Shown here: in pieces, positions 3,685-60,425 of the stretch
Layout of the letters: the number at the start of each line of letters is the position of its first letter
Position numbering within the stretch: position 1 is the first letter of the stretch
Source of the DNA: Syntrophaceae bacterium
Lineage (GTDB): Bacteria > Desulfobacterota > BSN033 > UBA1163
Length of the DNA: 64,000 nucleotides
Assembly: GCA_013388645.1 (NCBI GenBank)
Contig: JACAEV010000230.1
Span: 1,716-65,715 of the forward strand
Direction of reading: 5' to 3'
Notes under the pieces: model-generated
The model's database searches: none
The model's input: only the letters and a program-made list of their open reading frames with translations
What the model was told of the DNA's origin: nothing
Program-made: the position numbers and the translations under genes

Positions 3685-4836
3685 ATGGCAGATCTTTCTT
3701 TTGAACAAGGTCCCATCCGTCCGCCCAGTGAAGCTTACAGCCTCCTGTTGCGCGTGACGCGAAACTGCCCCTGGAACCGGTGTGAGTTTTGTCATACCTA
3801 CAAGCATAAGAAATTTAGTCTCAGGCGTGTGGAGGAAATAAAAAAAGATATTGACATCGTCCGAGAGATCGTCTCAGAGATCAAAAGCTTATCATGGAAA
3901 TACGGATTTGGAGGAGGGATCACGGTTCCTCTGGTCAATCTCATTTTACAAGATCCCCAGCATTTTTCTGATGGATTTCGGAGTGTGGCGTTATGGCTTT
4001 ATGAAGGAGGGAAGAATGTCTTTCTTCAGGACGGCGATAACCTGATCCTCAAAACCAGTGAATTGGTCGAGATATTAAGATATTTAAAAGAGACGTTTCC
4101 TTCCATCGAGAGGATCACCACTTACGCTCGGGCTAAAACGGTTTCAAAAAAGAAGGTCGAAGAACTTCAGGACCTCTATCGAGCTGGAATATCCAGAATT
4201 CATATTGGTCTGGAAACAGGATATCATCCGCTCCTTCAATATATCCAAAAAGGAGTGACCCCCCAGGAACATATCGAAGCGGGTAGAAAGGTCAAGGAAT
4301 CTGGGATCTCCCTCTCCGAATATGTGGTGCTGGGCTTGGGAGGAAAGGGAATGTGGCGGGAACACGCACTCCAAACGGCAATGGTTCTGAACCAAATCAA
4401 CCCCGACTTCATCCGGGTTCGAACATTAAAGGTGTTAAAGACCATGCCCCTTTATCAAAAAATTGAATCAAAGGAATTCGTCCTGCTCAATGATGATGAG
4501 ATCATTGAAGAGGAAAGGTTATTGATCCAATCATTGGAGGGGATTACCAGTCGGTTTGTCAGTGATCACATCTTAAACCTGCTCGAAGAGGTGGAAGGGA
4601 AATTTCCGGAAGAGAAGGAGAAGATGCTCAGCATCATCGATCGATATCTCGCTCTTCCGAAAGAAGAAAAAGAGAACTTTCGCTTGGGGAGAAGGGCAGG
4701 AGTCTACCGCTCGCTGGAGGATCTTGATCAACCCGAGCTCAGAGAAAAAGTGGAAGAGGCTCTTTTACAGATCGAAAAGAAGGGGCCAGGGGAGATTGAG
4801 AAGGTCCTCTCCGATTTAATGGAGTCCTTTATATGA
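3685..4836 (+). CDS. Radical SAM-like protein with a variant CX4CX2C cluster motif
   Basis: RNCPWNRCEFCH near the N-terminus, then a TIM-barrel-like IHIGLETG segment. Track start 3667 is TTG; ATG at 3685 has a better RBS. It is translationally adjacent to the HD protein. Confidence 0.5.
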   Translation: MADLSFEQGPIRPPSEAYSLLLRVTRNCPWNRCEFCHTYKHKKFSLRRVEEIKKDIDIVREIVSEIKSLSWKYGFGGGITVPLVNLILQDPQHFSDGFRSVALWLYEGGKNVFLQDGDNLILKTSELVEILRYLKETFPSIERITTYARAKTVSKKKVEELQDLYRAGISRIHIGLETGYHPLLQYIQKGVTPQEHIEAGRKVKESGISLSEYVVLGLGGKGMWREHALQTAMVLNQINPDFIRVRTLKVLKTMPLYQKIESKEFVLLNDDEIIEEERLLIQSLEGITSRFVSDHILNLLEEVEGKFPEEKEKMLSIIDRYLALPKEEKENFRLGRRAGVYRSLEDLDQPELREKVEEALLQIEKKGPGEIEKVLSDLMESFI

Positions 4837-5335: not shown

Positions 5336-5952
5336 GTTAATAAAAAACTGATTGTAAAAAAGGCTATAAACAGGTTATGAACATTTTGCTTTTAACCGTA
5401 CCCTTGAGAACCACAATATATTGTGTTTTGGATGTTAAAAAACACAAAAATATAACCCATTGAAATTTATAACTTTTTATTGAAGGGTATTTGGGTACAA
5501 TTTTGTTATTGTTGGGAGTTGAACCTCAAGATGGTCTCAAATTTTTTATTTCCACAGGTTTTAAACATTTGAGATGAATGACTTCTAAGTATTGATATTT
5601 CTCTATTTGAGGAGAACCCCGCCATCTTTCCCTTGATTTTGAATCAAATCCTCTGCTCCTATTGTGGAGATGATGATAGAATCAATCGCAGAAAAGCATA
5701 GGCATGGGAATGATAGAAAATTTCGATTTCAGAGAGAAATAGGGCAATTTTTCCCAATCGCTTTGGCCTTTTTAGAAATATCCTCAATCCCATTGCAGGA
5801 TTTATTTATCTAAAGCAAAGCCATGTTTCTGATTCCATTTGATATAAATCCTTTTTCCGTGACCGCTCGGAATGGGAATCCATTTGAAAGATTCAGGACT
5901 TTTTGTTATCTTGTTAGAAACAAAATAGAGGGAGAGGCTACCCATCCAACCG

Positions 5953-12263: not shown

Positions 12264-13595
12264 TTAGGCCTTCACGATTTTTTTCTTCCATTGGTTCATA
12301 TTTTTGGTGACATTTCGGGTGTCGATGACCAGGGGGGCGTGCTTTGCGACCCATGAATAGTCAATACAACTGTGGTCGGTGACCACCACGGCTGCATCGA
12401 CCTTCTGAAGTAATCTCTTTGTGAGAGGCGAGGATTTCAACTTAAAATAATATTTTCTAAAATGAGGAAGGGCAGGGATATAGGGATCATGATAGAGAAG
12501 GACCGCCCCCTTTTTTTGGAGGAGATCCATGATCGCCAGAGCAGGGGATTCTCTGGCATCGTCCACATCCTTTTTATAGGCCACTCCTAAGATCAAGACT
12601 TTTGCTCCCTTGATGCTTTTCCCTCTCCCATTGAGGGCATCTTGTATCTTGGCGACCACATAATAAGGAACATGAACGTTAATTTCCCCAGCTAAAAAGA
12701 TAAACCTTGTTGTGAAATCATATTCCCTGGCTTTCCAAGAAAGATAATAAGGGTCAATGGGGATACAATGACCTCCCAATCCAGGGCCTGGATAAAATGG
12801 TGAGAAACCAAACGGTTTGGTGCTGGCAGCTTCGATGACCTCCCAGATATCAATCCCCATTCGGTCCGCTAACATTTTTAATTCATTGACCAGGGCTATA
12901 TTTACACTGCGATAAATATTTTCAAGGAGCTTGGTTAATTCCGCCACTCGGGGGGAGGATACGGGAACCACCTTTTGAATGATGTGACCATAAAGAGTGG
13001 TAACCATTTTTTGGCAAGAGGACGTCACCCCTGCAACCACCTTGGGTATCTGTTGGGTCGTAAATCGTTTATTGCCGGGGTCCTCCCTTTCCGGAGAAAA
13101 GGCCAAAAAGAAATCTTTTCCAACTTTCAATCCAGTCGATTTTAATCTTGGAAGGATCATTTCTTCAGTCGTTCCAGGATATGTTGTACTTTCCAATACG
13201 ATGAGCTGACCTCGCCTGAGATGGTCTCGGATGGAATCAGTGGTTTTCTCTATATATTGGAGATCTGGTTCCATTTTTTCAGTCAAGGGAGTGGGTACGC
13301 AAATCAAGATACAGTCGGGTTCGCCGAGTTTGGAAAAATCGTCCGTCACATTTAAATGTCCATTTCGGACAAATTGAGAGATGCGTATGGAGGGAATGGA
13401 TTTTAAATAGCTCCTCCCTCTCTCCAGAGCAGTCACTTTTTTAGAGTCTACATCGAATCCCAAGATTCGAAAACCTTCTTCACAGAACCTGAGAACAAGG
13501 GGAAGGCCGACATATCCTAATCCAATGATTCCAATGAGGGCCTCCTTCTTAACGATCTTTTGGATCAATTGATTTGCTATCTTTAAATGCTCCAT
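12264..13595 (-). CDS. UDP-sugar (UDP-N-acetyl-D-mannosamine/glucosamine) 6-dehydrogenase family protein
   Basis: Rossmann motif IGIIGLGYVGLP and catalytic Cys region (GGHCIPID). Track start 13628 is TTG; ATG at 13595 has GGGGAG 6 nt upstream. Confidence 0.8.
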   Translation of the reverse strand: MEHLKIANQLIQKIVKKEALIGIIGLGYVGLPLVLRFCEEGFRILGFDVDSKKVTALERGRSYLKSIPSIRISQFVRNGHLNVTDDFSKLGEPDCILICVPTPLTEKMEPDLQYIEKTTDSIRDHLRRGQLIVLESTTYPGTTEEMILPRLKSTGLKVGKDFFLAFSPEREDPGNKRFTTQQIPKVVAGVTSSCQKMVTTLYGHIIQKVVPVSSPRVAELTKLLENIYRSVNIALVNELKMLADRMGIDIWEVIEAASTKPFGFSPFYPGPGLGGHCIPIDPYYLSWKAREYDFTTRFIFLAGEINVHVPYYVVAKIQDALNGRGKSIKGAKVLILGVAYKKDVDDARESPALAIMDLLQKKGAVLLYHDPYIPALPHFRKYYFKLKSSPLTKRLLQKVDAAVVVTDHSCIDYSWVAKHAPLVIDTRNVTKNMNQWKKKIVKA

Positions 13596-13710
13596 GCCAT
13601 GCTCCCCAATATTTGAAAGAGGGTTCAAGGATTCAAGGGTTATGGATACGAGTTTTTTAAAAACCTTTCATTGGGTCACTCGTGTGTTTTGTTAAGGGTC
13701 CCTTTACTTT

Positions 13711-13776
13711 GATTCCCATTCCGGGCTTGACCCGGAATCCAGTATCTTCGATCTGGATTCCCCCTTTCGCTGGGAT
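13711..13776. repeat. Hairpin-containing intergenic motif, copy A (between degT stop and dehydrogenase start)
   Basis: ATTCC-[GGGCttgaCCCG]-GAATCCAGT..CTGGATTCC..CTTTCGC is homologous to the copy at 15066-15130. It contains two adjacent perfect hairpins. Confidence 0.5.
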
Positions 13777-13836
13777 CATTTCTTCAGAACTTATGGTAAG
13801 AAGTGTTGAGCACACTGCAATAGAACTATAGACTTC

Positions 13837-14997
13837 TTAGTCTCTCATTCCTCTTTTTTTATAAAAAGCTCTCATTCGATCAACCACCACCATTTGTTGT
13901 TCTTCTTTAAGCTCAGGATAAATGGGCAGGGCCAATACCTCTTCGGAAGCTTTCTCAGAAACGGGGAGATCTCCTCGTTGGTATTTTAAGAAGGAAAAAC
14001 ATTCCTGTAGGTGCAAGGGAAGAGGATAATAGATGTCTGTCCCAATTCCCTCCTCAGCGAGAAATTTTTTTAATCGATCTCGTTGTGGAGTTCGAATGAC
14101 ATATTGGTGAAAGATATGGCGGTTTTGATATTGAGTCATCGGGAGGGTTAGACCTTCGATCATCGGTAAATGTTCTTTGAACAACCGATCATAACGCTCG
14201 GCTTTCTTTTGTCTCTCTTGGGTCCATGTTTCGAGATATTTGAATTTCACTAACAGGATTGCGGCTTGCATCGTATCAAGTCGGCTATTAATCCCAATCC
14301 GTTTGTGGAAGTATTTGGGCTGACTTCCATGAATCCTCAGCAAGCGAACTCTCTCTGCCAAAACAGGATCGTCCGTCACCACCATCCCTGCATCTCCAAA
14401 GGCTCCCAAATTTTTTGTAGGATAAAACGAGAAACAACCAAAGTTGCCCATCTGTCCCGCCCGTCGTTCCTTCGAGTCAGCCTTGGGTTGATACTGCGCC
14501 CCCAATGACTGGGCCGCATCTTCGATGACGAAAAGCTTTTTGGTCTTAGCGATTTGAAGCAGAGGGTCCATATCGGCACATTGGCCGAAGAGATGAACTG
14601 GGATGATGGCTTTTGTTCGGGATGTGATTTTTTCTTCAATTTTAGTTGGGTCAATGTTGTAAGTGTCTGGATCGATATCCACAAAAACGGGGATCGCCCC
14701 AAGACGAGAGACGGACCCTGCCGTGGCGAAGAAAGTAAAAGGAGGGAGGAGGACTTCATCTCCACTCTCAATATCTAAAGCCATTAAGGATAACAGAAGT
14801 GCATCCGAACCCGAAGCCACCCCAATGGCATATTGACTCCGACAATATTGGGCGATCTTTTCCTCCAAGGCCTGGACTTGAGCACCCAAAATGAATTGTT
14901 GAGTTTTGAACACTTCATCTAAAGCCGATTTGATCTCGCCTTCGATGAGTTTAAACTGAGTGGTTAAATCAAAAAAAGGAACCTTCAAAGGGGTCAA
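13837..14997 (-). CDS. DegT/DnrJ/EryC1/StrS family PLP-dependent sugar aminotransferase
   Basis: N-terminus VPFFDL..QF, a PLP-lysine region, and family-wide similarity. TTG start at 14997 is preceded by a perfect AAGGAGG RBS. Confidence 0.8.
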   Translation of the reverse strand: MTPLKVPFFDLTTQFKLIEGEIKSALDEVFKTQQFILGAQVQALEEKIAQYCRSQYAIGVASGSDALLLSLMALDIESGDEVLLPPFTFFATAGSVSRLGAIPVFVDIDPDTYNIDPTKIEEKITSRTKAIIPVHLFGQCADMDPLLQIAKTKKLFVIEDAAQSLGAQYQPKADSKERRAGQMGNFGCFSFYPTKNLGAFGDAGMVVTDDPVLAERVRLLRIHGSQPKYFHKRIGINSRLDTMQAAILLVKFKYLETWTQERQKKAERYDRLFKEHLPMIEGLTLPMTQYQNRHIFHQYVIRTPQRDRLKKFLAEEGIGTDIYYPLPLHLQECFSFLKYQRGDLPVSEKASEEVLALPIYPELKEEQQMVVVDRMRAFYKKRGMRD

Positions 14998-15065
14998 CGT
15001 TCTCCTCCTTGAACTGAAATCTACGTAAGATGAACTCGTGAAAAGTCCGATTCAGCTCATTATTG

Positions 15066-15130
15066 TCATTCCCGTGAAAACGGGAATCCAGTGAATTCAA
15101 ATACTTCTGGACTCCTGCTTTCGCAGGAGT
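15066..15130. repeat. Hairpin-containing intergenic motif, copy B (upstream of degT, divergent from trmJ)
   Basis: GTCATTCC-[CGtgaaaaCG]-GGAATCCAGT...CTGGACTCC-TGCTTTCGCAGGAGT, in the same orientation as copy A. Confidence 0.5.
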
Positions 15131-15229
15131 GACGGGTGGGAAGACTTTTTACGAGACCCTCACGTAAGGCTTTAATTAAGATAAAAAAAAATGATAGTCA
15201 AGGTATTTTTTCATCGGTATAATAAGGCC

Positions 15230-15964
15230 ATGAAGAGGAAGATCCACCTCCATTCCATTTCGATTATCCTGGTCCGACCCAAATTTCATGAAAATATTGG
15301 TTCAGTCGCCCGAGCGATGAAGAATATGGGATTCCATCGATTGGTCCTGATCAATGGGTGTTCTCCCCTACATCCCAATGCTTATCAATTAGCCTCGGGA
15401 GCGGAAGACATTTTAGAAAGGGCAGAGGAGTTCCCAACTCTGAGTGATGCGATCTCTGAAATGGGATGTGTTGTCGGTATGACTTCACGAGGAGGAAAGG
15501 GAAGAAATCCATCGCTTTCACCTGCCTCCTTAGCCAAAAAACTGATTCCCATTTCTTTTGAGAATTCCATTGGCCTCGTCTTTGGTTCAGAGAGAGAAGG
15601 GCTGACCAACGATGAATTGTCGCTTTGCCACCTTTGTGTCAAGATCCCGACCACCCCCTCTTTTCCTTCACTCAATCTCGCACAGGCCGTGATGGTCGTT
15701 TGTTATGAATTATATAAATCGTCGGCAGAAATCTTGAAACCAACCCTTCCATTAGCTCGAGTCGAGCAAATAGAAAAAATGTTTGAGCATATGGAGGAAA
15801 CGCTCCTCCGCATTGGATTTCTGGATGTCAACCATCCCAAGAGAATCATGCGAGGGCTCAGGCGTCTATTGGGAAGGAGCCAAATGGATGAGAGAGAAGT
15901 CCGAATTCTCCACGGGATTTGGAGCCAAATGGATCGGATAGTAGAAAGGAAGAAAGTCTCTTAG
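15230..15964 (+). CDS. trmJ: tRNA (cytidine/uridine-2'-O)-methyltransferase, SpoU/TrmJ-like
   Basis: ISIILVRPKFHENIGSVARAMKNMG is the classic SPOUT N-terminus. Start is placed at MKRK (15230), which matches TrmJ family starts. TATAAT at 15218-15223 suggests a short or leaderless 5' end. Confidence 0.65.
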   Translation: MKRKIHLHSISIILVRPKFHENIGSVARAMKNMGFHRLVLINGCSPLHPNAYQLASGAEDILERAEEFPTLSDAISEMGCVVGMTSRGGKGRNPSLSPASLAKKLIPISFENSIGLVFGSEREGLTNDELSLCHLCVKIPTTPSFPSLNLAQAVMVVCYELYKSSAEILKPTLPLARVEQIEKMFEHMEETLLRIGFLDVNHPKRIMRGLRRLLGRSQMDEREVRILHGIWSQMDRIVERKKVS

Positions 15965-28087: not shown

Positions 28088-31000
28088 ATGCTTATGCAGA
28101 CATCTCATTTCGTTCATCTTCATCTTCATAGCCAGTATAGTTTATTGGATGGGGCCATTCGATTTGATGAGGTGCTTGATCTGGCGAAGAGATATCGAAT
28201 GAATGCTCTGGCCCTGACCGATCACGGGAATATGTTTGGGGCGATCGAATTTTATCAGACGGCCATCAAACATGGCATTAAGCCCATCATCGGCTGTGAG
28301 ATGTATGTTGCCCCTGGAAGCCGTTTTGAGAAAAAAACTGAAGGGGGTGAAGAGGGAAACTACCATCTCACTCTATTGGTGAAGAATGAGACGGGCTATT
28401 TCAACCTTTTGAAATTAGTCAGTCTCGCCCATCTCGAGGGGTTTTATTACAAACCCAGAGTCGATAAAGAATTGCTCCGGCAATATCATGAGGGGTTGAT
28501 TGCTCTGAGCGGTTGTCTGAAAGGAGAAGTGGCGGTCCTTGCAAGGCGAGGAGAAATGAAGAAAGCACTTCAAACCGCGGAGGAATACAAGGCGATATTC
28601 GATGGCCGCCGATTTTACATCGAGATTCAACGAAATGGGGTGGAGAACCAATCCCAGATCAATGAACGGCTGTTAGAGATCGGGCACCAACTTTCCCTCC
28701 CCGCTGTCGCCACCAATGACTGCCATTATCTCCAGCGAAAGGATGCGAAGGCCCATGAAGTGCTCCTCTGCATCCAGACCGGCAAGACCCTTCAGGATCA
28801 GGACCGGATGAAATTTCCATCGGATGAGTTTTATTTTAAGTCACCCCAAGAGATGTTCGATCTTTTTCAGGATACTCCGGAAGCGATTTTCCATACGAAT
28901 GAAATTGCCGAGCAATGCAACCTTGAAATGCGATTCGACGAAAGGCACATTCCGAGGATCACTGTTCCGGTCGGGGAAACGGCCGAGAGCTACCTCGAAA
29001 AACTGGCCCGGGAGGGTTTAGAACAGCGACTTTCCCAATCTCATGAAGAGAAGTGGTCCAAGGAAAAGGAGACCCTTTATAAGGCGAGGCTGGAGGAGGA
29101 GCTCCGTATCATCAAATCCATGGGCTACCCGGGTTACTTTCTCATCGTTTATGATTTTATCCATTACGCCAAGAGTCATCATATTCCGGTTGGTCCCGGC
29201 AGAGGGTCGGCGGCTGGAAGTCTGGTGGCTTATGCCCTGAATATCACAGACTTGGACCCCATCGAATATGGATTGATCTTTGAGCGTTTTTTAAATCCGG
29301 GTCGAAAGAGCAGTATGCCCGATGTGGATGTTGATTTTTGCATGGAGGGAAGAGAAGAGGTCATTCAATATGTATCCGAGAAATATGGTAAAGAGAATGT
29401 GGCTCAGATTATTACCTTCGGGAAGATGCAAGCCAAAGCGGTGATCCGAGATGTGGGCCGGGTCCTCGGAATTCCCTATTCAGAAGTGGACCGAATTGCC
29501 AAACTCATTCCCAACAAATTGGATATCAACCTGGAGCAAGCCTTACACCAGGAACCGGCCCTTCGAGAGGCGATCGAAAAAGACAGCCGAATCGCCCACC
29601 TGTTTGATATTGCCAAGTCTTTGGAAGGGCTGGCCCGCCATGCTTCGACCCACGCAGCAGGAGTCGTGATTGCCAATAAACCCCTCATGGAATATCTTCC
29701 ACTTCAACGGGGTCCGAATGGAGAAATTATCACTCAATATGCCATGAAACAAGTTGAATCCATCGGTTTGGTCAAGTTTGATTTCCTGGGGCTGAAAACC
29801 CTCACTGTGGTCAACCAAGCGATTCAGCTCATCGAGAAGAACCGAGGGGTGAAAGTCGAACTGTTTGAGATCCCATTGGATGATCCAGACGTCTACGCCT
29901 CGCTTGGTGCTGGCTCAAACTTAGGCATCTTTCAACTGGAGAGTTCTGGGATGCGGGACCTCCTCATCAAACTCAAGCCGCAGAGTTTTAAAGACATCAT
30001 CGCCTTAGTCGCCCTCTATCGTCCAGGCCCCCTGGATAGTGGGATGGTGGGTGAATTTATTAAACGAAAACATGGCCAGGAGACCATCCGCTATGATCTT
30101 CCTTCCTTAGAAGAGATTCTCAAGGATACTTACGGGGTCATCGTCTATCAGGAACAGGTGATGCGCATTGCGAGCACACTGGCCAATTTTAGCCTGGAAG
30201 ATGCAGATAATCTTCGAAGAGCCATGTCCAAGAAAGACAGCCTGGAGATGGAGCGGCAAAAAGAGAAGTTTCTTGAGGGAGCTAAGAAAAACAGAATCCC
30301 AGCTAAAAAGGCAGAAAAGATTTTTGAACAGATGGAGACCTTTGGTCGATATGGTTTTAATAAATCCCACAGCGCGGCCTATGCGTTGCTGGCTTACCAA
30401 ACCGCTTATCTCAAGACTCATTATCCTGTTGAATTTATGGCAGCGTTGCTCACGAGCGAGGCGCCAAACGCAGAAAAAATCGTCAAGTATATTTCCGAAT
30501 GCCGAGAAATGAAGATCGAGATCTTACCACCGGATATCAATGAGAGTTTTAAACAGTTTGCGGTATCCGGAAACCAGATTCGATTCGGCCTGACCGCTGT
30601 GAAAAACGTTGGAGATGCGGCCATTGACATCATCCTGTCGGAGCGGGAAAGAAGAGGGAAATTTAAATCCCTGTACGATTTCTGTCACCGTGTGGATTTA
30701 CGAAAGGTGAATCGACGGGTGATTGAAAGCTTGATCAAATGCGGTGCGTTTGACTTTTCGAAGGTTTACCGATCTCAAATGTTGACTGTCCTCGGGGAAC
30801 TCCTCGAACAATCCCAGTCAGCGCAAAGAAAAAAAGGGGAACCCCAACTCAGCATGTTAATTGATCGGTCCAGTGAACTGAAAGAAGAATACCCAGAAAT
30901 CGATGAATTTCCTGAGAATCAGTTGATCACCTTTGAGAAAGAAACGATCGGATTTTATATTTCACGCCATCCCCTCTCACGATATCAAGAGGAGATTAAA

Positions 31001-45251: not shown

Positions 45252-45342
45252 GTGATGGCAAGGAAGCCCGTTTGGTCAATGGTCAAAAGGCGAAGGGAAA
45301 GCCGTAAAGGCCAACGACCTCACCCTTCTACCAAACAGGCAT

Positions 45343-49258: not shown

Positions 49259-49267
49259 TATAATAAC

Positions 49268-49312
49268 GGAACCGGCACCTCAACCTCAACCTTAACCTTA
49301 ACCTTAACCTTA
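49268..49312. repeat. Tandem hexamer array (CCTCAA)2(CCTTAA)5 in the divergent mrcA/GT2 intergenic region
   Basis: Perfect head-to-tail 6-nt units, 35 nt upstream of the candidate -35 of the GT2 gene. Confidence 0.8.
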
Positions 49313-49346
49313 ACCTTAACCTTTTTACTCTTTTCTGTATAAATTC

Positions 49347-54495: not shown

Positions 54496-54498
54496 AAT

Positions 54499-56046
54499 TC
54501 ATTCGATCGGTATATCAATCCCTCTTTCTCCTGGGGATTTAGGGTCCCAGAGAAAAAGATACATGGAGGCATCAGTTGGAAATTTATTGAAATTGAGAAA
54601 ACTTCCATCAAAATAACCCTTTAAAACAGCTGGAGAGTTTCCCTTCAATTTTTTCGCAGTCTTTTCTCCTGTAACAATCCATAATCGGCTACCATCTTCA
54701 ATATATCTGGTACAACAGGTTTTGGAATAATATATCGTATATTTCTTATTTTGAAAAATGAACGATTTTCTGAACTCAATCTCATTTTCTGAAATTTTAA
54801 AATAGGGAATCGAATAATGCCGTCCTTCAGGATATACCCCAAAATAATGAAGGATGCCTGGCATATAAGCCATGTCGCTATCAAAAAGTTTATCTCCCTC
54901 TCGAAGCTGATTTTTTAAGTAACTGACAAGGCCCCTGAAATCCTCCTTCTCAGCGTGGTAATAAGGTGGAAGAATCACAAGATTAGATGCGATAAAGAGG
55001 ATAACAAAAAGGAGTCTTAGTCGCATTATTTTTTTTAATTTTTCAAATCTATTTTCAATAGCACTAAGGGACATATATAGGGTAATAAGGAAAAGAGGCA
55101 AAAAACTGATAAGATACCTCGAGGTAATGAAATGGAAAATATTAAATAATCTACAAAACAGAAATAGTCCGCCGATCGGTAAGATGAAAAGACCAAAAAG
55201 AATAAGTGCATTCGTCCAAGGTTTTGAAACGAGAAGCAAAGAAATCGAAAGGACTACCGAAACAACCGTGAGAGGGGCATAGGGTGCCCAATCATTTAAC
55301 ACATTAGATAAAATACTCCAAAGAGGGGTAATAACCTTGAGTTCGTAAGGATGGATCATAGATTGACCATGGTAATTTAGGGCCAAGAAAAGTATCCAGG
55401 GAATACAGAGCAAAAGGAGGATACTATTTAAAATTAAAAAATAATAAAAGCGAGGTTTTTTATTTTGCCCATTCACTTGATAGAACCATAAAATCTGGGA
55501 CAGTATAATAAATAAGATGGTGCTATAACTCGTGTAGAATAATGTCGCAAAGGGAAAAGGGATCATTACCAAATATCGTTTTTTTGAAGTCTTCAAATAT
55601 TTTATAAAAAAATAAAGGCTCAAAATCCCTAAAAACATTGTCAGTGAATAGGCTCGTCCATCTTGGGAAAGGCTGATGTGATAGGCCATGAAGGTTAAGG
55701 AAATTGCACATGGAAGGCCAATAGCTGGAGAAAATAATCTTGCAAGCAGATAGATCATAGGGATGGAAAGGGTTCCGAAAATTAAAGGAATGATACGAAG
55801 ATCTCGTTCAGGCTTTGTAAATGGATGAAATAAATGAGTAAGAATAAAAAAGAGGGGAGGGTGAAGGTAGGTCGGGTTTTCTTTATAATATTTTAGTTGG
55901 TTTTGGATGTCATCTCGCGAGTCATTGAAAGTGTGAATTTCATCAAGCCATAGAGACTTTTGATCATAAGTATAGATCCGCAGGGTAAAACCTATGAGGA
56001 GGCAAAGAATCAGAATAAATATTTCTTTCCGCTTTGGGTTATTCAT
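54499..56046 (-). CDS. GT-C family glycosyltransferase (GT39/ArnT/PMT_2-like), paralog 1
   Basis: First-loop W.DEIHT..DSRDD acidic motif, YLHPPLFF, at least 10 TM helices, and a C-terminal periplasmic domain. Track TTG at 56121 is replaced by ATG 56046, based on alignment to paralog 2 (MNNPKRKEIFILILCLLIGF vs MNKIVKKDILILILCLIIGF). Confidence 0.65.
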   Translation of the reverse strand: MNNPKRKEIFILILCLLIGFTLRIYTYDQKSLWLDEIHTFNDSRDDIQNQLKYYKENPTYLHPPLFFILTHLFHPFTKPERDLRIIPLIFGTLSIPMIYLLARLFSPAIGLPCAISLTFMAYHISLSQDGRAYSLTMFLGILSLYFFIKYLKTSKKRYLVMIPFPFATLFYTSYSTILFIILSQILWFYQVNGQNKKPRFYYFLILNSILLLLCIPWILFLALNYHGQSMIHPYELKVITPLWSILSNVLNDWAPYAPLTVVSVVLSISLLLVSKPWTNALILFGLFILPIGGLFLFCRLFNIFHFITSRYLISFLPLFLITLYMSLSAIENRFEKLKKIMRLRLLFVILFIASNLVILPPYYHAEKEDFRGLVSYLKNQLREGDKLFDSDMAYMPGILHYFGVYPEGRHYSIPYFKISENEIEFRKSFIFQNKKYTIYYSKTCCTRYIEDGSRLWIVTGEKTAKKLKGNSPAVLKGYFDGSFLNFNKFPTDASMYLFLWDPKSPGERGIDIPIE

Positions 56047-56124
56047 AACAAGCTTATTATTACACCCTGAACATAGCCCTTTTACAAAACAGGCCTCTTG
56101 ACCGTCAGGTAAGGTCTGCAATAT

Positions 56125-57684
56125 TCATTCAATCGGAATATCAATTCCTTTCTCTCCGGGTGATTTGGGATCCCAAAGAAAAAGATACATGGAGGCATCG
56201 CTCGGGAATCTCCTAAACATAGCAAAACTTCCATCAAAATATCCTTTCAAAACACAGGATGGATTTTTCTTCAATTCATCTACCCCAGGCCCTTTTCCGA
56301 GAAGAATCCATAACCGGTTTCCATCTTCGACATATTGAGCATAGGGAATATTCGAATGATAGATAGGAAAATTTCTGTTTTGGGCAATGAGAGACACTTT
56401 AAACTCAAACAGCTTCCCTGGTTCTTTCCATGAGAAGGGAATAACATAATGCCGATTTACTGGATCAACATTGAAATAATGGAGAATCCCAGGAATGTAA
56501 GTATATGTTCCAACAACAAGCTTATCTCCATCTCGAAGGTGGTTATTTAAATAATTCACTAAGCTCCTAAAATCCTGCTTCTCAGAATGATAATAAGGGA
56601 AAAGAATTATGAGATTTGACAAAATAAACAGGATGAGAAATAAATGCTTTGGTCCCAGCCGAATAAATCCTTTTAATTTTTCAAATTTTAATTCTATTGT
56701 ATCAAGGGATAGGTACAAAGTTATAAGAAATAAAGGAAGAAAATTGATATAGTATCTGGATGTAATAAACTGGGTCACCTTTAGTAATTTACAGTATAAA
56801 TAAAGTCCTCCGATAGGGAGAATAAAAAGGGCTACGAGGATCAAACTGTTTTTTTTATTTTTAGAAAAAATTGGGAAAAGAATTAATAGAATCAGGGAAA
56901 CAATGCTCAAAGGCGGAAGTGGTGCCCAATCATTAAACATCCCTAACATGATATTTGGAAAAGAGTCAATATCTTGAATAGTAATAGGATCCATAACCGG
57001 TTGACCTTTGTAGTTCAATACAATAAAAAGAATCCACGGAAAACAAAGAGATAGGGTTAATCCGATTAACAGGGAAAGGGAAGAAATAATGGATTTCGTT
57101 TTCTTTTCATTCAATTGATAGAGCCAAACCAATTGGCTAAAAACAATAAATATAATAGTGCTGTAACTCATGTAAAATAAAGTGGCAAAAAAGAAAGCGG
57201 CAGGAATAAGGTATCGCTTTTCTGATGTCTTAAGGTGCCTCATTAATAAATAAAGAGCTGCCATCCCAAAAAACATGATCAAAGAATACATTCGGCCATC
57301 CTGGGAAAAGTAAATATGGTATGTCATGAAAGTCAAAGATAGGGTACATGGAAGGGCGATGGCAGAAGAAAACAATCTTGACAAGAAATAAAACATTGGC
57401 ATTGAAAGGACTCCGAAGATTAAAGGGAGAATGCGAAGGTCTTTTTCTGGCTTTGTAAATGGATAGAATGTGTGAGTGAGAACAAAAAAAAGTGGAGGGT
57501 GAAGATAGGTTGGGTTGTCTTTGTAATATTTCAATTGTCCCTGGATGTCATCTCTTGAATCATTATAAGTATGGATTTCATCAATCCAGAGAGATTTTTG
57601 GTCGAAGGTATAGAATCGCAGGGCGAATCCTATAATGAGACATAGAATAAGAATGAGGATATCTTTCTTCACAATTTTATTCAT
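56125..57684 (-). CDS. GT-C family glycosyltransferase (GT39/ArnT/PMT_2-like), paralog 2
   Basis: Same architecture as paralog 1. The ends are near-identical (...ASMYLFLWDPKSPGEKGIDIPIE). Confidence 0.65.
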   Translation of the reverse strand: MNKIVKKDILILILCLIIGFALRFYTFDQKSLWIDEIHTYNDSRDDIQGQLKYYKDNPTYLHPPLFFVLTHTFYPFTKPEKDLRILPLIFGVLSMPMFYFLSRLFSSAIALPCTLSLTFMTYHIYFSQDGRMYSLIMFFGMAALYLLMRHLKTSEKRYLIPAAFFFATLFYMSYSTIIFIVFSQLVWLYQLNEKKTKSIISSLSLLIGLTLSLCFPWILFIVLNYKGQPVMDPITIQDIDSFPNIMLGMFNDWAPLPPLSIVSLILLILFPIFSKNKKNSLILVALFILPIGGLYLYCKLLKVTQFITSRYYINFLPLFLITLYLSLDTIELKFEKLKGFIRLGPKHLFLILFILSNLIILFPYYHSEKQDFRSLVNYLNNHLRDGDKLVVGTYTYIPGILHYFNVDPVNRHYVIPFSWKEPGKLFEFKVSLIAQNRNFPIYHSNIPYAQYVEDGNRLWILLGKGPGVDELKKNPSCVLKGYFDGSFAMFRRFPSDASMYLFLWDPKSPGEKGIDIPIE

Positions 57685-59034: not shown

Positions 59035-59466
59035 ATGTTAAGGAGAGAAAAAGGTTTTACATTGATTGAGTTGTTGATCGTTATTGCCATCATCGGTATT
59101 TTGGCCGCTATCGCCATTCCGATGTATAAGACACAGACAATCAAAGCGAAAATGACAGAAGTCACAAATGGGATGAGTAATGTGGCAAGCGCAGTGGCTG
59201 CCTATATGCAGGAAACAGGCGGTTGGCCTACTGCTGGATCTGCAGCACTAATTCAGAGTAGCTTAGGTGTATCAACCGGAGCCCTATCAAGAATTTCCTC
59301 TCTCGCAGTAAATCAAGGTGTAATTACTGCAGTGGTAACAGCTATTGATGCAACCGTTGATGGCAGAAATTTAGTTATGACTCCGACTTCAAATGCAGAT
59401 GGCTCTATAATCTGGAACTGGACCACTACAAACAATATGCCACCTGCGTATATTCCTAAACGGTAA
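59035..59466 (+). CDS. pilA: Type IVa major pilin (PilA-like)
   Basis: Prepilin leader MLRREKG|[22 protein letters not shown] with Glu at +5. AAAGGAGG RBS. The C-terminal segment is Ser/Thr-rich (TPTSNADGS...WTTTNN). Confidence 0.85.
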   Translation: MLRREKGFTLIELLIVIAIIGILAAIAIPMYKTQTIKAKMTEVTNGMSNVASAVAAYMQETGGWPTAGSAALIQSSLGVSTGALSRISSLAVNQGVITAVVTAIDATVDGRNLVMTPTSNADGSIIWNWTTTNNMPPAYIPKR

Positions 59467-59496
59467 TTTAAAAATTCGTGGAGTTTAACTTTCTCT

Positions 59497-59552
59497 TTTG
59501 TTGGTGCTCGAAGACTGTTAATTTCTTCGGGCACCAACAAATCTTTTTTATT
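59497..59552 (+). terminator. Rho-independent terminator between pilin 1 and pilin 2
   Basis: TTGTTGGTGCTCGAAG...CTTCGGGCACCAACAA stem (one G-U) followed by ATCTTTTTTATT. Confidence 0.7.
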
Positions 59553-59589
59553 GTGAAAGTAAATCTTTACTGTGCAGTAAGGATTTAAA

Positions 59590-60033
59590 GTGAAAAAAAA
59601 TAACCCAGGCTTTACTCTGATTGAATTATTAGTGGTTATTGCAATCATAGGCATTTTGGCCGCTGTTGCGCTTCCAATGTACAGAGGCTATACGGTTATG
59701 GCTAAATTGTCTGAAGTGGAGAATGCAATGTCCACTGTTGCAAGTGGCCTTACAGGATATTATCACGAACAAAATTCTTGGCCTGATTGTCCTACGATAA
59801 ATGAGGTCAGAAACAGTTTGGGGGTGTCATTGGGGGCAATCTCACGGGTTTCTGCATTATCTGTTTCAGGTGTGAATGGAATGATTACAGCAACAATACA
59901 AGATATTCATTTTATGGTGGACGGAAAAACATTAACATTGACACCGAGTACAAGTAACGATAGTTCAATAACTTGGAATTGGGGATGGTCCCTTGATTTT
60001 CCTCCTCAGTTTAGACCTAAAAGTGGCAGGTAA
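59590..60033 (+). CDS. Type IVa pilin paralog
   Basis: MKKNNPG|[25 protein letters not shown] start with AAGGA RBS. C-terminal S/T-rich [14 protein letters not shown] parallels pilin 1. Confidence 0.8.
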
Positions 60034-60035
60034 AG

Positions 60036-60425
60036 ATGAAATCAAAAAAAGGAATTACATTGATAGAATTATTGGTCGTGATCGTGATTGTAGGTGTTCT
60101 TGCAGCCATAGCTGTTCCTCTTTATACGAATTATATGCAAAGAGCCCGGAGAGCCGATGCCAAAACAGCATTGGAGCAGTTAAGGGCAGCACAAGAGATG
60201 TTTAGGGCAGAAAGAGGGGTTTATTCCACGGATATCGCCCAGCTGAGAGGAACATGGGGGGTACCTGCTGTATCCGGAGATTATGCTATATTATTAAACT
60301 CAGCAACCGCAACCACTTTTCTTGGGCAAGCTGATCCGAGTGGAAGTCCAAGGCAGGCGAGTGACGGAAGCTTATTTATTAATCAGGATGGGGTTAAAAC
60401 CCCTGCGGACAAATGGGCCAAATGA
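60036..60425 (+). CDS. Minor pilin, PilE/FimT-like
   Basis: MKSKKG|[22 protein letters not shown]; YTNYMQRARRADAKTALEQL resembles the PilE/FimT-type minor-pilin motif. It overlaps the pilin 2 stop. Confidence 0.7.
   Translation: MKSKKGITLIELLVVIVIVGVLAAIAVPLYTNYMQRARRADAKTALEQLRAAQEMFRAERGVYSTDIAQLRGTWGVPAVSGDYAILLNSATATTFLGQADPSGSPRQASDGSLFINQDGVKTPADKWAK

Follow-up and report, generated by a model that had tools for sequence, protein, structure and literature searches.

Two hairpin doublets beside degT in a Syntrophaceae genome: repeats of the NTS/dRS3-SRM family, one of them carried by a 133-bp MITE

Introduction

Within the 64-kb stretch of DNA analysed here (the window), which comes from a Syntrophaceae MAG of the Thermodesulfobacteriota, two similar double hairpins lie in the spacers preceding an aminotransferase gene and a dehydrogenase gene. 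A sequence-only reading of the window had described them as a conserved motif of about 65 nt in the 5' leaders of both genes and had offered as possible roles a cis-regulatory RNA or attenuator, a pair of protein-binding sites, or a REP-like element family. The question raised by this locus is whether the hairpins form a regulatory device of the operon or are repeat DNA that happens to lie there. It is addressed here by the sequence and structure of the hairpin units, by the limits of the elements that carry them, by the same spacers in syntenic relatives and by the gene context of the repeat in other genomes.

The locus and its two copies

The flanking genes are those named before, a degT-family aminotransferase gene (13837..14997, minus strand) with the start codon TTG at 14997 and the ribosome-binding site AGGAGGAG ahead of it, and an NDP-sugar dehydrogenase gene (12264..13628, minus strand), the true start of which is probably ATG at 13595. 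The gene trmJ (15191..15964, plus strand) is divergent from degT; its likely start is ATG at 15231, behind TAGTCA-17-TATAAT.

Copy A, between degT and the dehydrogenase gene, and copy B, between trmJ and degT, are both present where they had been placed and share the architecture described for them. The pattern GGAATCCAGTN{5,25}TCTGGAYTCC has exactly two matches in the window, at 13734-13761 and 15083-15115, and none in 100 dinucleotide shuffles of it. Each copy is composed of two hairpin units of about 28 nt, GTCATTCC-stem-loop-stem-GGAATCCAG, in opposite orientation, and because each copy is itself inverted, the 'same orientation' assigned to the two has little meaning. The unit covariance model finds four units in the 64-kb window; a repeat copy number for the source genome judged from these four is an extrapolation. 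A suspected degenerate third copy at 5862-5905 was rejected, as it gave no match to the unit model at E<=10, fold z-scores of +0.39 and +0.08, and a poor alignment.

Hairpin units and repeat family

The NTS repeat is defined by the consensus CGTCATTCCCGCGMAVGCGGGAATCYRG, next to which a degenerate SRM pattern has been described (Chenal et al., Nat Commun 2025, PMC11893778). Units of Neisseria and Wolbachia are bound and cut, as ssDNA only, by the small GIY-YIG nuclease SsnA, and the unpaired GTC together with the C just after the stem are positions critical for cleavage and binding (PMC11893778). The units found here have the form GTC-ATTCC-NNN-loop-NNN-GGAAT-CCAG, with a length of about 28 nt. 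In the unit alignment 96.5% of the stem cells are paired, 70 cells are changed on both sides, and five of the eight pairs covary, which none of 500 shuffles equals. G5, T6 and C7 are conserved at 90% or more and C28, after the stem, is invariant; this unpaired GTC and C coincide with the positions that Chenal et al. found critical (PMC11893778).

The covariation bears on the proposal that the two copies are paired sites for a dsDNA-binding transcription factor that co-regulates both genes. Two similar palindromic sites about 1.35 kb apart do flank degT, but stem positions that covary with the pairing kept point to selection on the folded single strand and not on the duplex sequence; the sites are also absent in relatives, and the family is spread over many phyla in varied gene contexts. 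Paired factor sites are hardly credible and the least probable of the readings considered here.

Unit B1 of copy B, TGTCATTCCCGTGAAAACGGGAATCCAG (15064..15091, plus strand), has an 8-bp stem, a GAAA loop, a 5' GTC and a 3' CCAG. It matches the SRM pattern exactly, for which shuffles lead to an expectation of 0.16 matches per window, and the NTS consensus with at most 5 mismatches; its DNA fold has -7.8 kcal/mol (z -4.3). Unit B2, CGTCACTCCTGCGAAAGCAGGAGTCCAG (15107..15134, minus strand), is inverted relative to B1 and contains the GCGAAAGC hairpin that had already been picked out in copy B. It is likewise within 5 mismatches of the NTS consensus, with a DNA fold of -8.6 kcal/mol (z -5.1). The covariance-model scores of 47.2 bits for B1 and 50 bits for B2 are those of units which themselves stand in the training set.

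Unit A1 of copy A (13711..13744, plus strand, located by the unit model) is of the CTTGA-loop type and degenerate, its 5' GTC being changed to CCC; it lies outside the training set and scores 19.7 bits (E=0.0018). Unit A2 (13751..13783, minus strand, also by the unit model) is decayed, with three stem pairs broken and the 5' GTC lost, and scores 17.1 bits (E=0.011). Since both fail the SRM pattern as well as the NTS consensus and reach E-values of only 0.002 and 0.011, they are regarded as degenerate family members. The units of copy A and copy B belong to the NTS/dRS3 and SRM repeat family by sequence, through the exact SRM match of B1 and the NTS match of B2, and by structure, as hairpins with oriented single-stranded flanks (5' GTC, 3' C).

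A miniature transposon at copy B

Copy B had been located correctly, but its extent had been taken as 15066-15130; the real element is MITE-like, measures 133 bp (15029..15161, without assigned strand) and is built as TIR - linker - hairpin doublet - linker - TIR. Its limits are given by a DNA profile, by the element size across loci, which has its mode at 133 bp, and by a gap in relatives. The left terminal inverted repeat, GATGAACTCGTGAAAAGTC (15029..15047, plus strand), and the right one, which reads GACTTTTTACGAGACCCTC on the plus strand (15143..15161, minus strand), are 19 bp long, are conserved in 25 aligned elements and were recovered by a TIR scan that gave 101 matches across 45 loci. 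The TIR motif of the family is the pair GATGNNCTCGTAAAAAGTC ... GACTTTTTACGAGNNCATC. The MITE profile matches copy B end to end (102 bits, E=7e-30), a score that is partly circular because the 25 aligned elements comprise 24 from other genomes and the window's own copy. A TIR-like match at window position 29983, inside a coding region, was rejected as due to chance.

On either side of the element the 6-bp target-site duplication ACGTAA can be read directly (left 15023..15028, right 15162..15167, both without strand). Among 35 elements that have a TIR at each end, 15 have identical 6-nt flanks and 22 have flanks with at most one mismatch, as against 0 of 35 in a shifted control; the consensus of the duplication is AANNTT. 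The corresponding site is empty in six aligned syntenic relatives, which show a single clean gap of about 139 nt. Of the features by which a MITE was tested, copy B has three: the TIRs, a target-site duplication that is constant in length but varies in sequence from copy to copy, and the absence of the element from the corresponding site in relatives.

Copy B is a fresh insertion of a miniature transposon that carries the hairpin doublet. The element lies 32 nt ahead of the start codon of degT, and the MITE would have entered the interval that separates the promoter block of trmJ from the ribosome-binding site of degT, duplicating ACGTAA, presumably moved by a transposase that makes 6-bp staggered cuts. 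The MITE is probably transcribed within the degT 5' leader, so that any effect on expression would be a side effect of its position. Elsewhere the same TIRs enclose other cores or none (L186). No TIR pair enclosing a transposase was found among the fetched loci, a small search space of about 1.2 Mb for an autonomous element; the ORFs near solo TIRs encode CDP-alcohol phosphatidyltransferase proteins and proteins with MORN repeats. No match to the MITE was found by BLAST in collections of plasmids and phages. The repeat family is a known one; the 133-bp MITE that carries it is new and previously undescribed.

Copy A and the syntenic relatives

Outer TIRs were looked for around copy A and none were found; the MITE profile matches no more of it than the doublet core, and copy A is therefore a bare doublet. 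For bare doublets the search for a target-site duplication gave no signal above the control. Copy A is orthologous to a better-preserved doublet in one relative (L143), with 79% identity over the whole spacer. It is older and in decay, and its retention in one relative leaves room for some local constraint.

About 41 metagenomic relatives keep the order trmJ<->degT->dehydrogenase, and only three of them contain units. The doublet is present in the degT-dehydrogenase spacer of one of the relatives and in the trmJ-degT spacer of one, there at a position different from that of copy B; from the same spacers of about 39 of the 41 the elements are absent. In L131, L132, L134 and L140 degT and the dehydrogenase gene are 4-5 nt apart, and therefore no leader exists in these relatives.

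Such a distribution is difficult to reconcile with an operon-specific cis-regulatory RNA, that is, with a double hairpin which acts in the 5' leaders as riboswitch, attenuator or leader and controls degT and the dehydrogenase gene. In favour of such an RNA, each copy precedes one of the two genes on the transcribed strand, and the predicted RNA folds are stable (copy A, z -2.0; copy B, z -5.2). Conservation at the orthologous position, which is expected of a leader RNA, is lacking, however; some relatives have no degT-dehydrogenase spacer at all, copy B was inserted, with duplication of its target, at a site that is empty in relatives, and the stems of copy A are broken. Rfam at gathering thresholds returned a single tRNA for the whole window and no family matching either copy, while a permissive scan of 13550-15300 delivered sub-threshold chance matches only (mir-43, Termite-leu, RMST). 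In the window sequence no U-tract follows either hairpin, and a scan for terminator and promoter consensus sequences found none inside copy A or copy B. With the gene contexts reported below also standing against it, a regulatory RNA of this operon is very improbable.

Spread and gene context in other genomes

At least 120 loci contain the doublet. They are spread over many phyla, with Nitrospirota, Thermodesulfobacteriota, Planctomycetota, Aminicenantes, Proteobacteria, Patescibacteria and others among the matches listed. Related genomes contain several copies per 8-kb locus, with up to 8 units. Doublets are mostly extragenic, 29% of them being in long ORFs versus 83% of random positions. Viral contigs contain the doublet pattern in just 9 stretches. 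Two independent assemblies break at or beside the spacers of this locus, and the repeat nature of the spacers accounts for these breaks in metagenome assemblies.

The sequence-only reading had suggested checking whether the copies always precede sugar-modification genes. They do not: a DegT homologue occurs in 1 and an NDP-sugar dehydrogenase in 1 of the 120 listed loci, and unrelated genes lie beside the doublet in 118 of the 120. The consistent link to one gene class that a leader RNA would show is thus not seen. That reading had itself named a spread over random intergenic sites as the result which would point to a generic REP element, and the at least 120 mostly extragenic loci favour this REP-like option; of the other roles it proposed, neither an operon-specific RNA or attenuator nor a pair of protein sites was upheld. 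Both copies are, with high probability, noncoding repetitive or mobile DNA of the NTS/dRS3-SRM family and not a regulatory device of this operon, and any effect of the repeats on the operon is incidental.

REP and Correia elements are known to have effects on mRNA in E. coli and Neisseria, and repeats of mobile origin could by analogy have been exapted here as RNA. Copy A would then be an intercistronic hairpin that shields the upstream degT segment from 3' exonucleases, and copy B would give the 5' UTR a structure that affects translation or serves as a substrate of RNase III. Consistent with such a role, both copies lie inside the likely transcription unit, the folds are strong (-34.5 kcal/mol for the minus strand of copy B), and copy A has been kept in one relative. 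Exaptation is nevertheless unlikely in view of the missing conservation across relatives and of the decay of copy A; it would be a by-product at most and would leave the repeat family unexplained.

Possible link to small GIY-YIG nuclease genes

The doublets may be related to genes for small GIY-YIG nucleases. In other organisms genes of this type (PF01541, about 95 aa, E 1e-8 to 1e-13) have a plus-strand unit just upstream and a minus-strand unit just downstream in three of three contexts. Outside the seed matches, all 10 pairs of neighbouring units have the +/- arrangement with the CCAG ends inward. Two units placed head-to-head with their CCAG ends inward would make up the doublet, the same layout as around the small GIY-YIG genes, and next to these unit(+)-gene-unit(-) arrangements the doublet looks like a gene-less derivative. 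The best reading, by analogy, is that of a REPIN-like doublet derived from a unit-ssn-unit element but lacking the gene. A phmmer search with an approximate consensus query found a GIY-YIG gene neither in the 64 kb of the window nor in any of the 120 listed doublet loci. Compared with solved structures and curated NCBIfam models, the small GIY-YIG proteins gave only a weak UPF0213 match and a sub-threshold match to a group I intron endonuclease. An Ssn homologue of this organism may act on the units as ssDNA.

A wider reading is offered tentatively, as a possibility that we would lean against: head-to-head doublets in general might be non-autonomous unit-ssn-unit derivatives, Ssn nucleases might drive a REPIN/RAYT-like selfish system across phyla, and the module might have been captured as MITE cargo in Thermodesulfobacteriota. 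If so, nuclease target sites would be amplified by a second route, through the MITE, which would also bring sites cleavable as ssDNA into 5' leaders, that of degT being an example.

Implications

For the annotation of the window a false regulatory lead is removed, the hairpins upstream of degT and of the dehydrogenase gene being repeat DNA. The range of the NTS/SRM repeats, which were characterised in 2025 for Neisseria, extends to a Syntrophaceae MAG and to many lineages without cultured members. Their typical form there is a gene-less inverted doublet that mirrors the units flanking ssn genes, and in Thermodesulfobacteriota the doublets ride on a 133-bp MITE with a 6-bp AANNTT duplication. 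These repeats offer concrete cases for asking whether the repeats of Ssn nucleases are mobilised or policed by the nucleases themselves.

Comparison with known systems

With the riboswitches and attenuators of sugar-nucleotide operons the two copies share the upstream position and a stable predicted RNA fold. They differ from them in having no conservation at orthologous sites, no link to a gene class, no Rfam match and no terminator/anti-terminator logic.

The Correia element of Neisseria and other bacterial MITEs are similar to the element at copy B in being noncoding and about 100-150 bp long, with TIRs and a target-site duplication, many copies, insertion into intergenic regions or 5' UTRs and empty sites in relatives. 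Unlike in the Correia element, the TIR here is GATGNNCTCGTAAAAAGTC, the duplication has 6 bp (AANNTT) and is not TA, and the core is an Ssn-type hairpin doublet, with the same TIRs also carrying other cores or none.

The REP/REPIN-RAYT systems (Pseudomonas; BIMEs of E. coli) are alike in architecture only: short extragenic hairpin repeats form inverted doublets that fold into a long hairpin, a single-copy gene of nuclease type lies between copies of the same repeats, which suggests mobilisation in trans, and bare doublets have no target-site duplication. The gene concerned is here a GIY-YIG nuclease instead of a Y1 transposase of the IS200/IS605 type, and the unit shows no sequence relationship to GTAG-type REPs and is shared across phyla, not species-specific.

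With NTS/dRS3/SRM and SsnA (PMC11893778) the likeness extends to the unit itself, GTCATTCC-stem-G(M)A(V) loop-stem-GGAATC(Y)(R)G, to the dRS3 core ATTCCC-N8-GGGAAT, to oriented, non-palindromic flanks, to the extragenic, multi-copy occurrence seen in related genomes, and to units that in other organisms flank small GIY-YIG genes in inverted orientation. The host differs, as the Syntrophaceae MAG belongs to the Thermodesulfobacteriota, is not known as naturally transformable and has no ssn gene in the 64-kb window. Further differences are two subtypes that are common here, one with a CTTGA loop and one with an ACTCC/GGAGT stem, the tight head-to-head doublets without a gene, and the presence of one such doublet as the cargo of a MITE with TIRs and a target-site duplication.

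Hairpin doublets in the window

As the sequence-only reading had described, the region holds two motif copies with a common pattern: copy A, in the degT-dehydrogenase spacer, includes CATTCCGGGCTTGACCCGGAATCCAGTATCTTCGATCTGGATTCCCCCTTTCGCTGGGATCAT, and copy B, in the trmJ-degT spacer, includes GTCATTCCCGTGAAAACGGGAATCCAGTGAATTCAAATACTTCTGGACTCCTGCTTTCGCAGGAGTGAC (both read directly from the window). The pattern GGAATCCAGT-N5-25-TCTGGAYTCC has two matches in the window and none in 100 dinucleotide-preserving shuffles. The gene calls of that reading were also right. The DegT-family aminotransferase gene is located at 13837-14997 on the minus strand (start codon TTG at 14997, preceded by AGGAGGAG), the NDP-sugar dehydrogenase gene at 12264-13628 on the same strand, and the trmJ gene, divergent from degT, at 15191-15964 on the plus strand. 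The third copy tentatively placed at 5862-5905 is not supported: its alignment is poor, it lacks a fold signal, and the covariance model of the hairpin unit, run without filters, gives no hit there at E<=10.

In both copies, two ~28-nt units form an inverted doublet, each unit being built as GTC + ATTCC + 3-nt inner stem + loop + inner stem complement + GGAAT + CCAG with loops of the GAAA or CTTGA type; the CCAG ends of both units face inward across a short variable spacer. The unit model places two intact units in copy B, B1 (15064-15091, plus strand) and B2 (15107-15134, minus strand), and two degenerate ones in copy A, A1 (13711-13744, plus strand) and A2 (13751-13783, minus strand). The copy A units, which have lost the 5' GTC and show three broken pairs in one stem, score 19.7 and 17.1 bits versus 47 and 50 for the copy B units; the latter belonged to the training set, and their independent support is the match to the published consensus. 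Both copies are very probably NTS/SRM-family repeats or mobile DNA, copy B having come on a MITE with TIRs and target-site duplications and copy A being a relic.

Relationship to NTS/SRM repeats and GIY-YIG genes

In Neisseria, the dRS3 repeat (ATTCCC-N8-GGGAAT) lies within the 28-nt NTS, CGTCATTCCCGCGMAVGCGGGAATCYRG, which generalises to Ssn-related motifs (SRM), and in many phyla small single-domain GIY-YIG genes (ssnA, cd10448) are flanked by NTS/SRM repeats (Chenal et al. 2025, PMC11893778). SsnA binds and cuts these repeats as ssDNA but neither as dsDNA nor as RNA; cleavage depends on the three nucleotides 5' of the palindrome, and for binding the C just 3' of it matters most (PMC11893778). 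B1 is an exact SRM-pattern match (expectation 0.16 per shuffled window), and B1 and B2 both lie within five mismatches of NTS, those in the stem being compensating pairs. By sequence and structure, the hairpin unit belongs to the known NTS/SRM family.

A ~95-aa GIY-YIG consensus, used for retrieval only, yielded at least 8000 PF01541 proteins with identities of up to 80%. Three neighbourhoods were fetched, those of P0112 (locus L208), P0100 (L218, Nitrospirae MAG GCA_016212165.1; bona fide GIY-YIG domain, 62.5 bits) and P0060 (L220). All three genes have a (+) unit directly upstream and a (-) unit directly downstream (unit model, E 1e-8 to 1e-13), the layout in L218 being ...GTTATTCCCGCGCAGGCGGGAATCCAG-14 nt-ATG...TAA-10 nt-CTCTGGATTCCCGTTTTCACGGGAATGAC. 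Because the units bracket GIY-YIG genes in +/- orientation, the doublet appears to be this arrangement with 5-25 nt in place of the gene. Neither the 64-kb window nor any of the 120 doublet loci listed holds a GIY-YIG gene, and the fetched GIY-YIG proteins have no close PDB or NCBIfam entry.

Breadth and structure of the family

The central pattern occurs in at least 120 loci in one scan of species-representative genomes; the matches listed include Nitrospirota, Thermodesulfobacteriota, Planctomycetota, Aminicenantes, Alpha- and Gammaproteobacteria, Chloroflexota, Patescibacteria and others. Nearly all of the 120 loci listed carry the full doublet GTCATTCC...GGAATCCAG-spacer-CTGGATTCC...GGAATGAC, and many 8-kb loci hold several units (at most eight). 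Outside the seed matches there are 28 solo units, and all ten neighbouring pairs are +/- with the CCAG ends inward.

Over 74 distinct units, 96.5% of the cells in the 8-bp stem are paired, with at most 50% pairing in slid controls; 70 cells are changed on both sides and five of the eight pairs covary, which none of 500 shuffles equalled. Conservation is at least 90% to 100% for the unpaired GTC and for the C that follows the stem, and these are the experimentally critical positions of PMC11893778. Doublets avoid long ORFs: 29% lie under a stop-free span of 150 aa or more, versus 83% for positions drawn at random from these loci. The doublet pattern is rare in viral contigs (nine stretches), and no Rfam family matches. 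Among the matches listed, a DegT homologue and an NDP-sugar dehydrogenase each occur in one of 120 doublet loci.

In many units a ~28-nt insert, CCCCG-N5-8-CGGGGATAAACTCCAG, follows the outer stem, always at one position within the hairpin (L001, L072, L074, L078, L097 and L143, there at 2127-2181), and a mirrored form is present in L006, L018, L053 and L114. The insert is itself hairpin-like, and thus looks like a second small element nested in the unit.

Copy B as a 133-bp MITE

About a quarter of the doublets in the loci listed lie inside a longer element whose ends, GATGNNCTCGTAAAAAGTC ... GACTTTTTACGAGNNCATC, are conserved and whose named hosts are almost all Thermodesulfobacteriota. Its size is tightly modal at 133 bp, longer variants containing nested inserts. 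The copy B element spans 15029-15161, with TIRs at 15029-15047 and 15143-15161 and a target-site duplication, ACGTAA, at 15023-15028 and 15162-15167. A 25-copy profile, the window's own copy included, matches this element end to end (102 bits, E=7e-30) and copy A in the core only.

The 6-nt flanks of 35 elements with both TIRs are identical in 15 cases and have no more than one mismatch in 22, with 0/35 in the shifted control; the sites vary between copies around a consensus AANNTT. Such matching flanks are target-site duplications, which means that the element transposes by a 6-bp staggered cut. For bare doublets a target-site duplication was looked for and not found. The MITE sequence has no match in plasmid and phage collections, and the searchable literature gave no instance of its TIR sequence.

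In locus L186 the MITE TIRs stand back-to-back without a core in a ~46-bp TIR-TIR mini-palindrome (4101-4146), and with an unrelated core in a 143-bp element (4260-4402), so TIR chassis and hairpin doublet are separable modules.

The two spacers in relatives

A metagenome scan with DegT gave 80 loci, of which ~41 keep the trmJ<->degT->dehydrogenase synteny (DegT 69-83% identical). Fifteen of 19 trmJ-degT spacers inspected are short (extracted regions of 124-171 nt, including ~59 nt of flanking coding sequence); the other four are longer, one with its own repeat insertion. Six aligned relatives are collinear with the window once 15029-15167 is removed, leaving a single clean gap of ~139 nt, with the conserved promoter block of trmJ (TTGACTATCATTTTTTTTTATCTTAATTAAA) to one side and the ribosome-binding site of degT to the other. 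A doublet is present in this spacer in L147 only, at another position and with different outer repeats.

Within the spacer, conservation is highest in the A/T-rich block upstream of the trmJ start. In the window (15195-15233) and in relatives the trmJ start codon follows a conserved TATAAT (TAGTCA-17-TATAAT) by ~7 nt, which suggests a leaderless trmJ mRNA.

The degT and dehydrogenase genes lie 4-5 nt apart in L131, L132, L134 and L140, and spacers of other relatives hold unrelated repeats. Only L143 has a doublet here; this doublet and copy A, together with their flanks, align at 79% identity. Copy A is thus an old insertion common to two lineages and is decaying in the window. A tandem 8-nt motif, GAACCCTT / GAATCCTT (e.g. 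CCCTTGAATCCTTGAACCCTC), is located directly upstream of the dehydrogenase start (13629-13665, minus strand) and in at least five relatives with a spacer (L142, L143, L152, L153, L162). Kept at the orthologous site, whereas the doublet is not, it is the better leader or operator candidate.

A different palindromic family, of the CCCTCTCCC...GGGAGAGGG / GGGGTGAGGGTGA type, occurs in this spacer or upstream of the dehydrogenase gene in some relatives (L122, last 140 nt; L129, 4134-4361; L160, spacer), so the spacer is a recurrent landing site for unrelated repeats. Two independent metagenome assemblies break at or beside these spacers. JGI contig L122 (Ga0494774_0000153), from a relative, stops in the spacer upstream of the dehydrogenase gene, inside such a CCCTCTCCC-type repeat; the degT-carrying Logan contig L121 (SRR10095362) stops within copy B, ~90 nt upstream of degT. 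Repeats usually fragment assemblies, and both breaks are consistent with this.

Other repeats in the window

A direct-repeat scan found an AACCTT hexamer run (ACCTTAACCTTAACCTT...) at 49265-49323, with related AACCTT-rich copies at 45317, 63345 and 63891. Two repeat pairs, 54497/56123 and 55625/57263, ~75-77% identical and ~1.63 kb apart (within 54497-57562), suggest a tandem gene duplication, and a 75-nt segment is present three times, at 59052, 59607 and 60050 (within 59052-60124). These resemble type IV pilin-like N-termini (GFTLIELL...).

Proposed mechanism and comparison with known systems

The units are under selection as folded single strands with flanks that a protein recognises, which would fit an Ssn-type ssDNA nuclease. 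The model would further involve an ssn gene in the source MAG, cleavage of the copy A and B units, a transposase behind the MITE and transcription through the elements. Between the MITE and the degT start codon, which is downstream of it, lie 32 nt; the one promoter-like block of the spacer that is conserved is upstream of the MITE. The MITE is probably transcribed within the degT leader, where a strong fold is predicted (-34.5 kcal/mol for copy B as RNA). In the model, a putative effect on degT expression would be a side effect.

For the operon the finding is ordinary; it is of mild interest as evidence that the hairpins targeted by Ssn occur in many phyla as doublets without a gene and were captured by a MITE in Thermodesulfobacteriota. 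The 133-bp element is typical in form of bacterial MITEs. The doublet resembles a REPIN, the partner gene here being a GIY-YIG nuclease, and its relation to the unit-GIY-YIG-unit arrangement can be likened to that of a REPIN to its RAYT gene or of a MITE to its IS.
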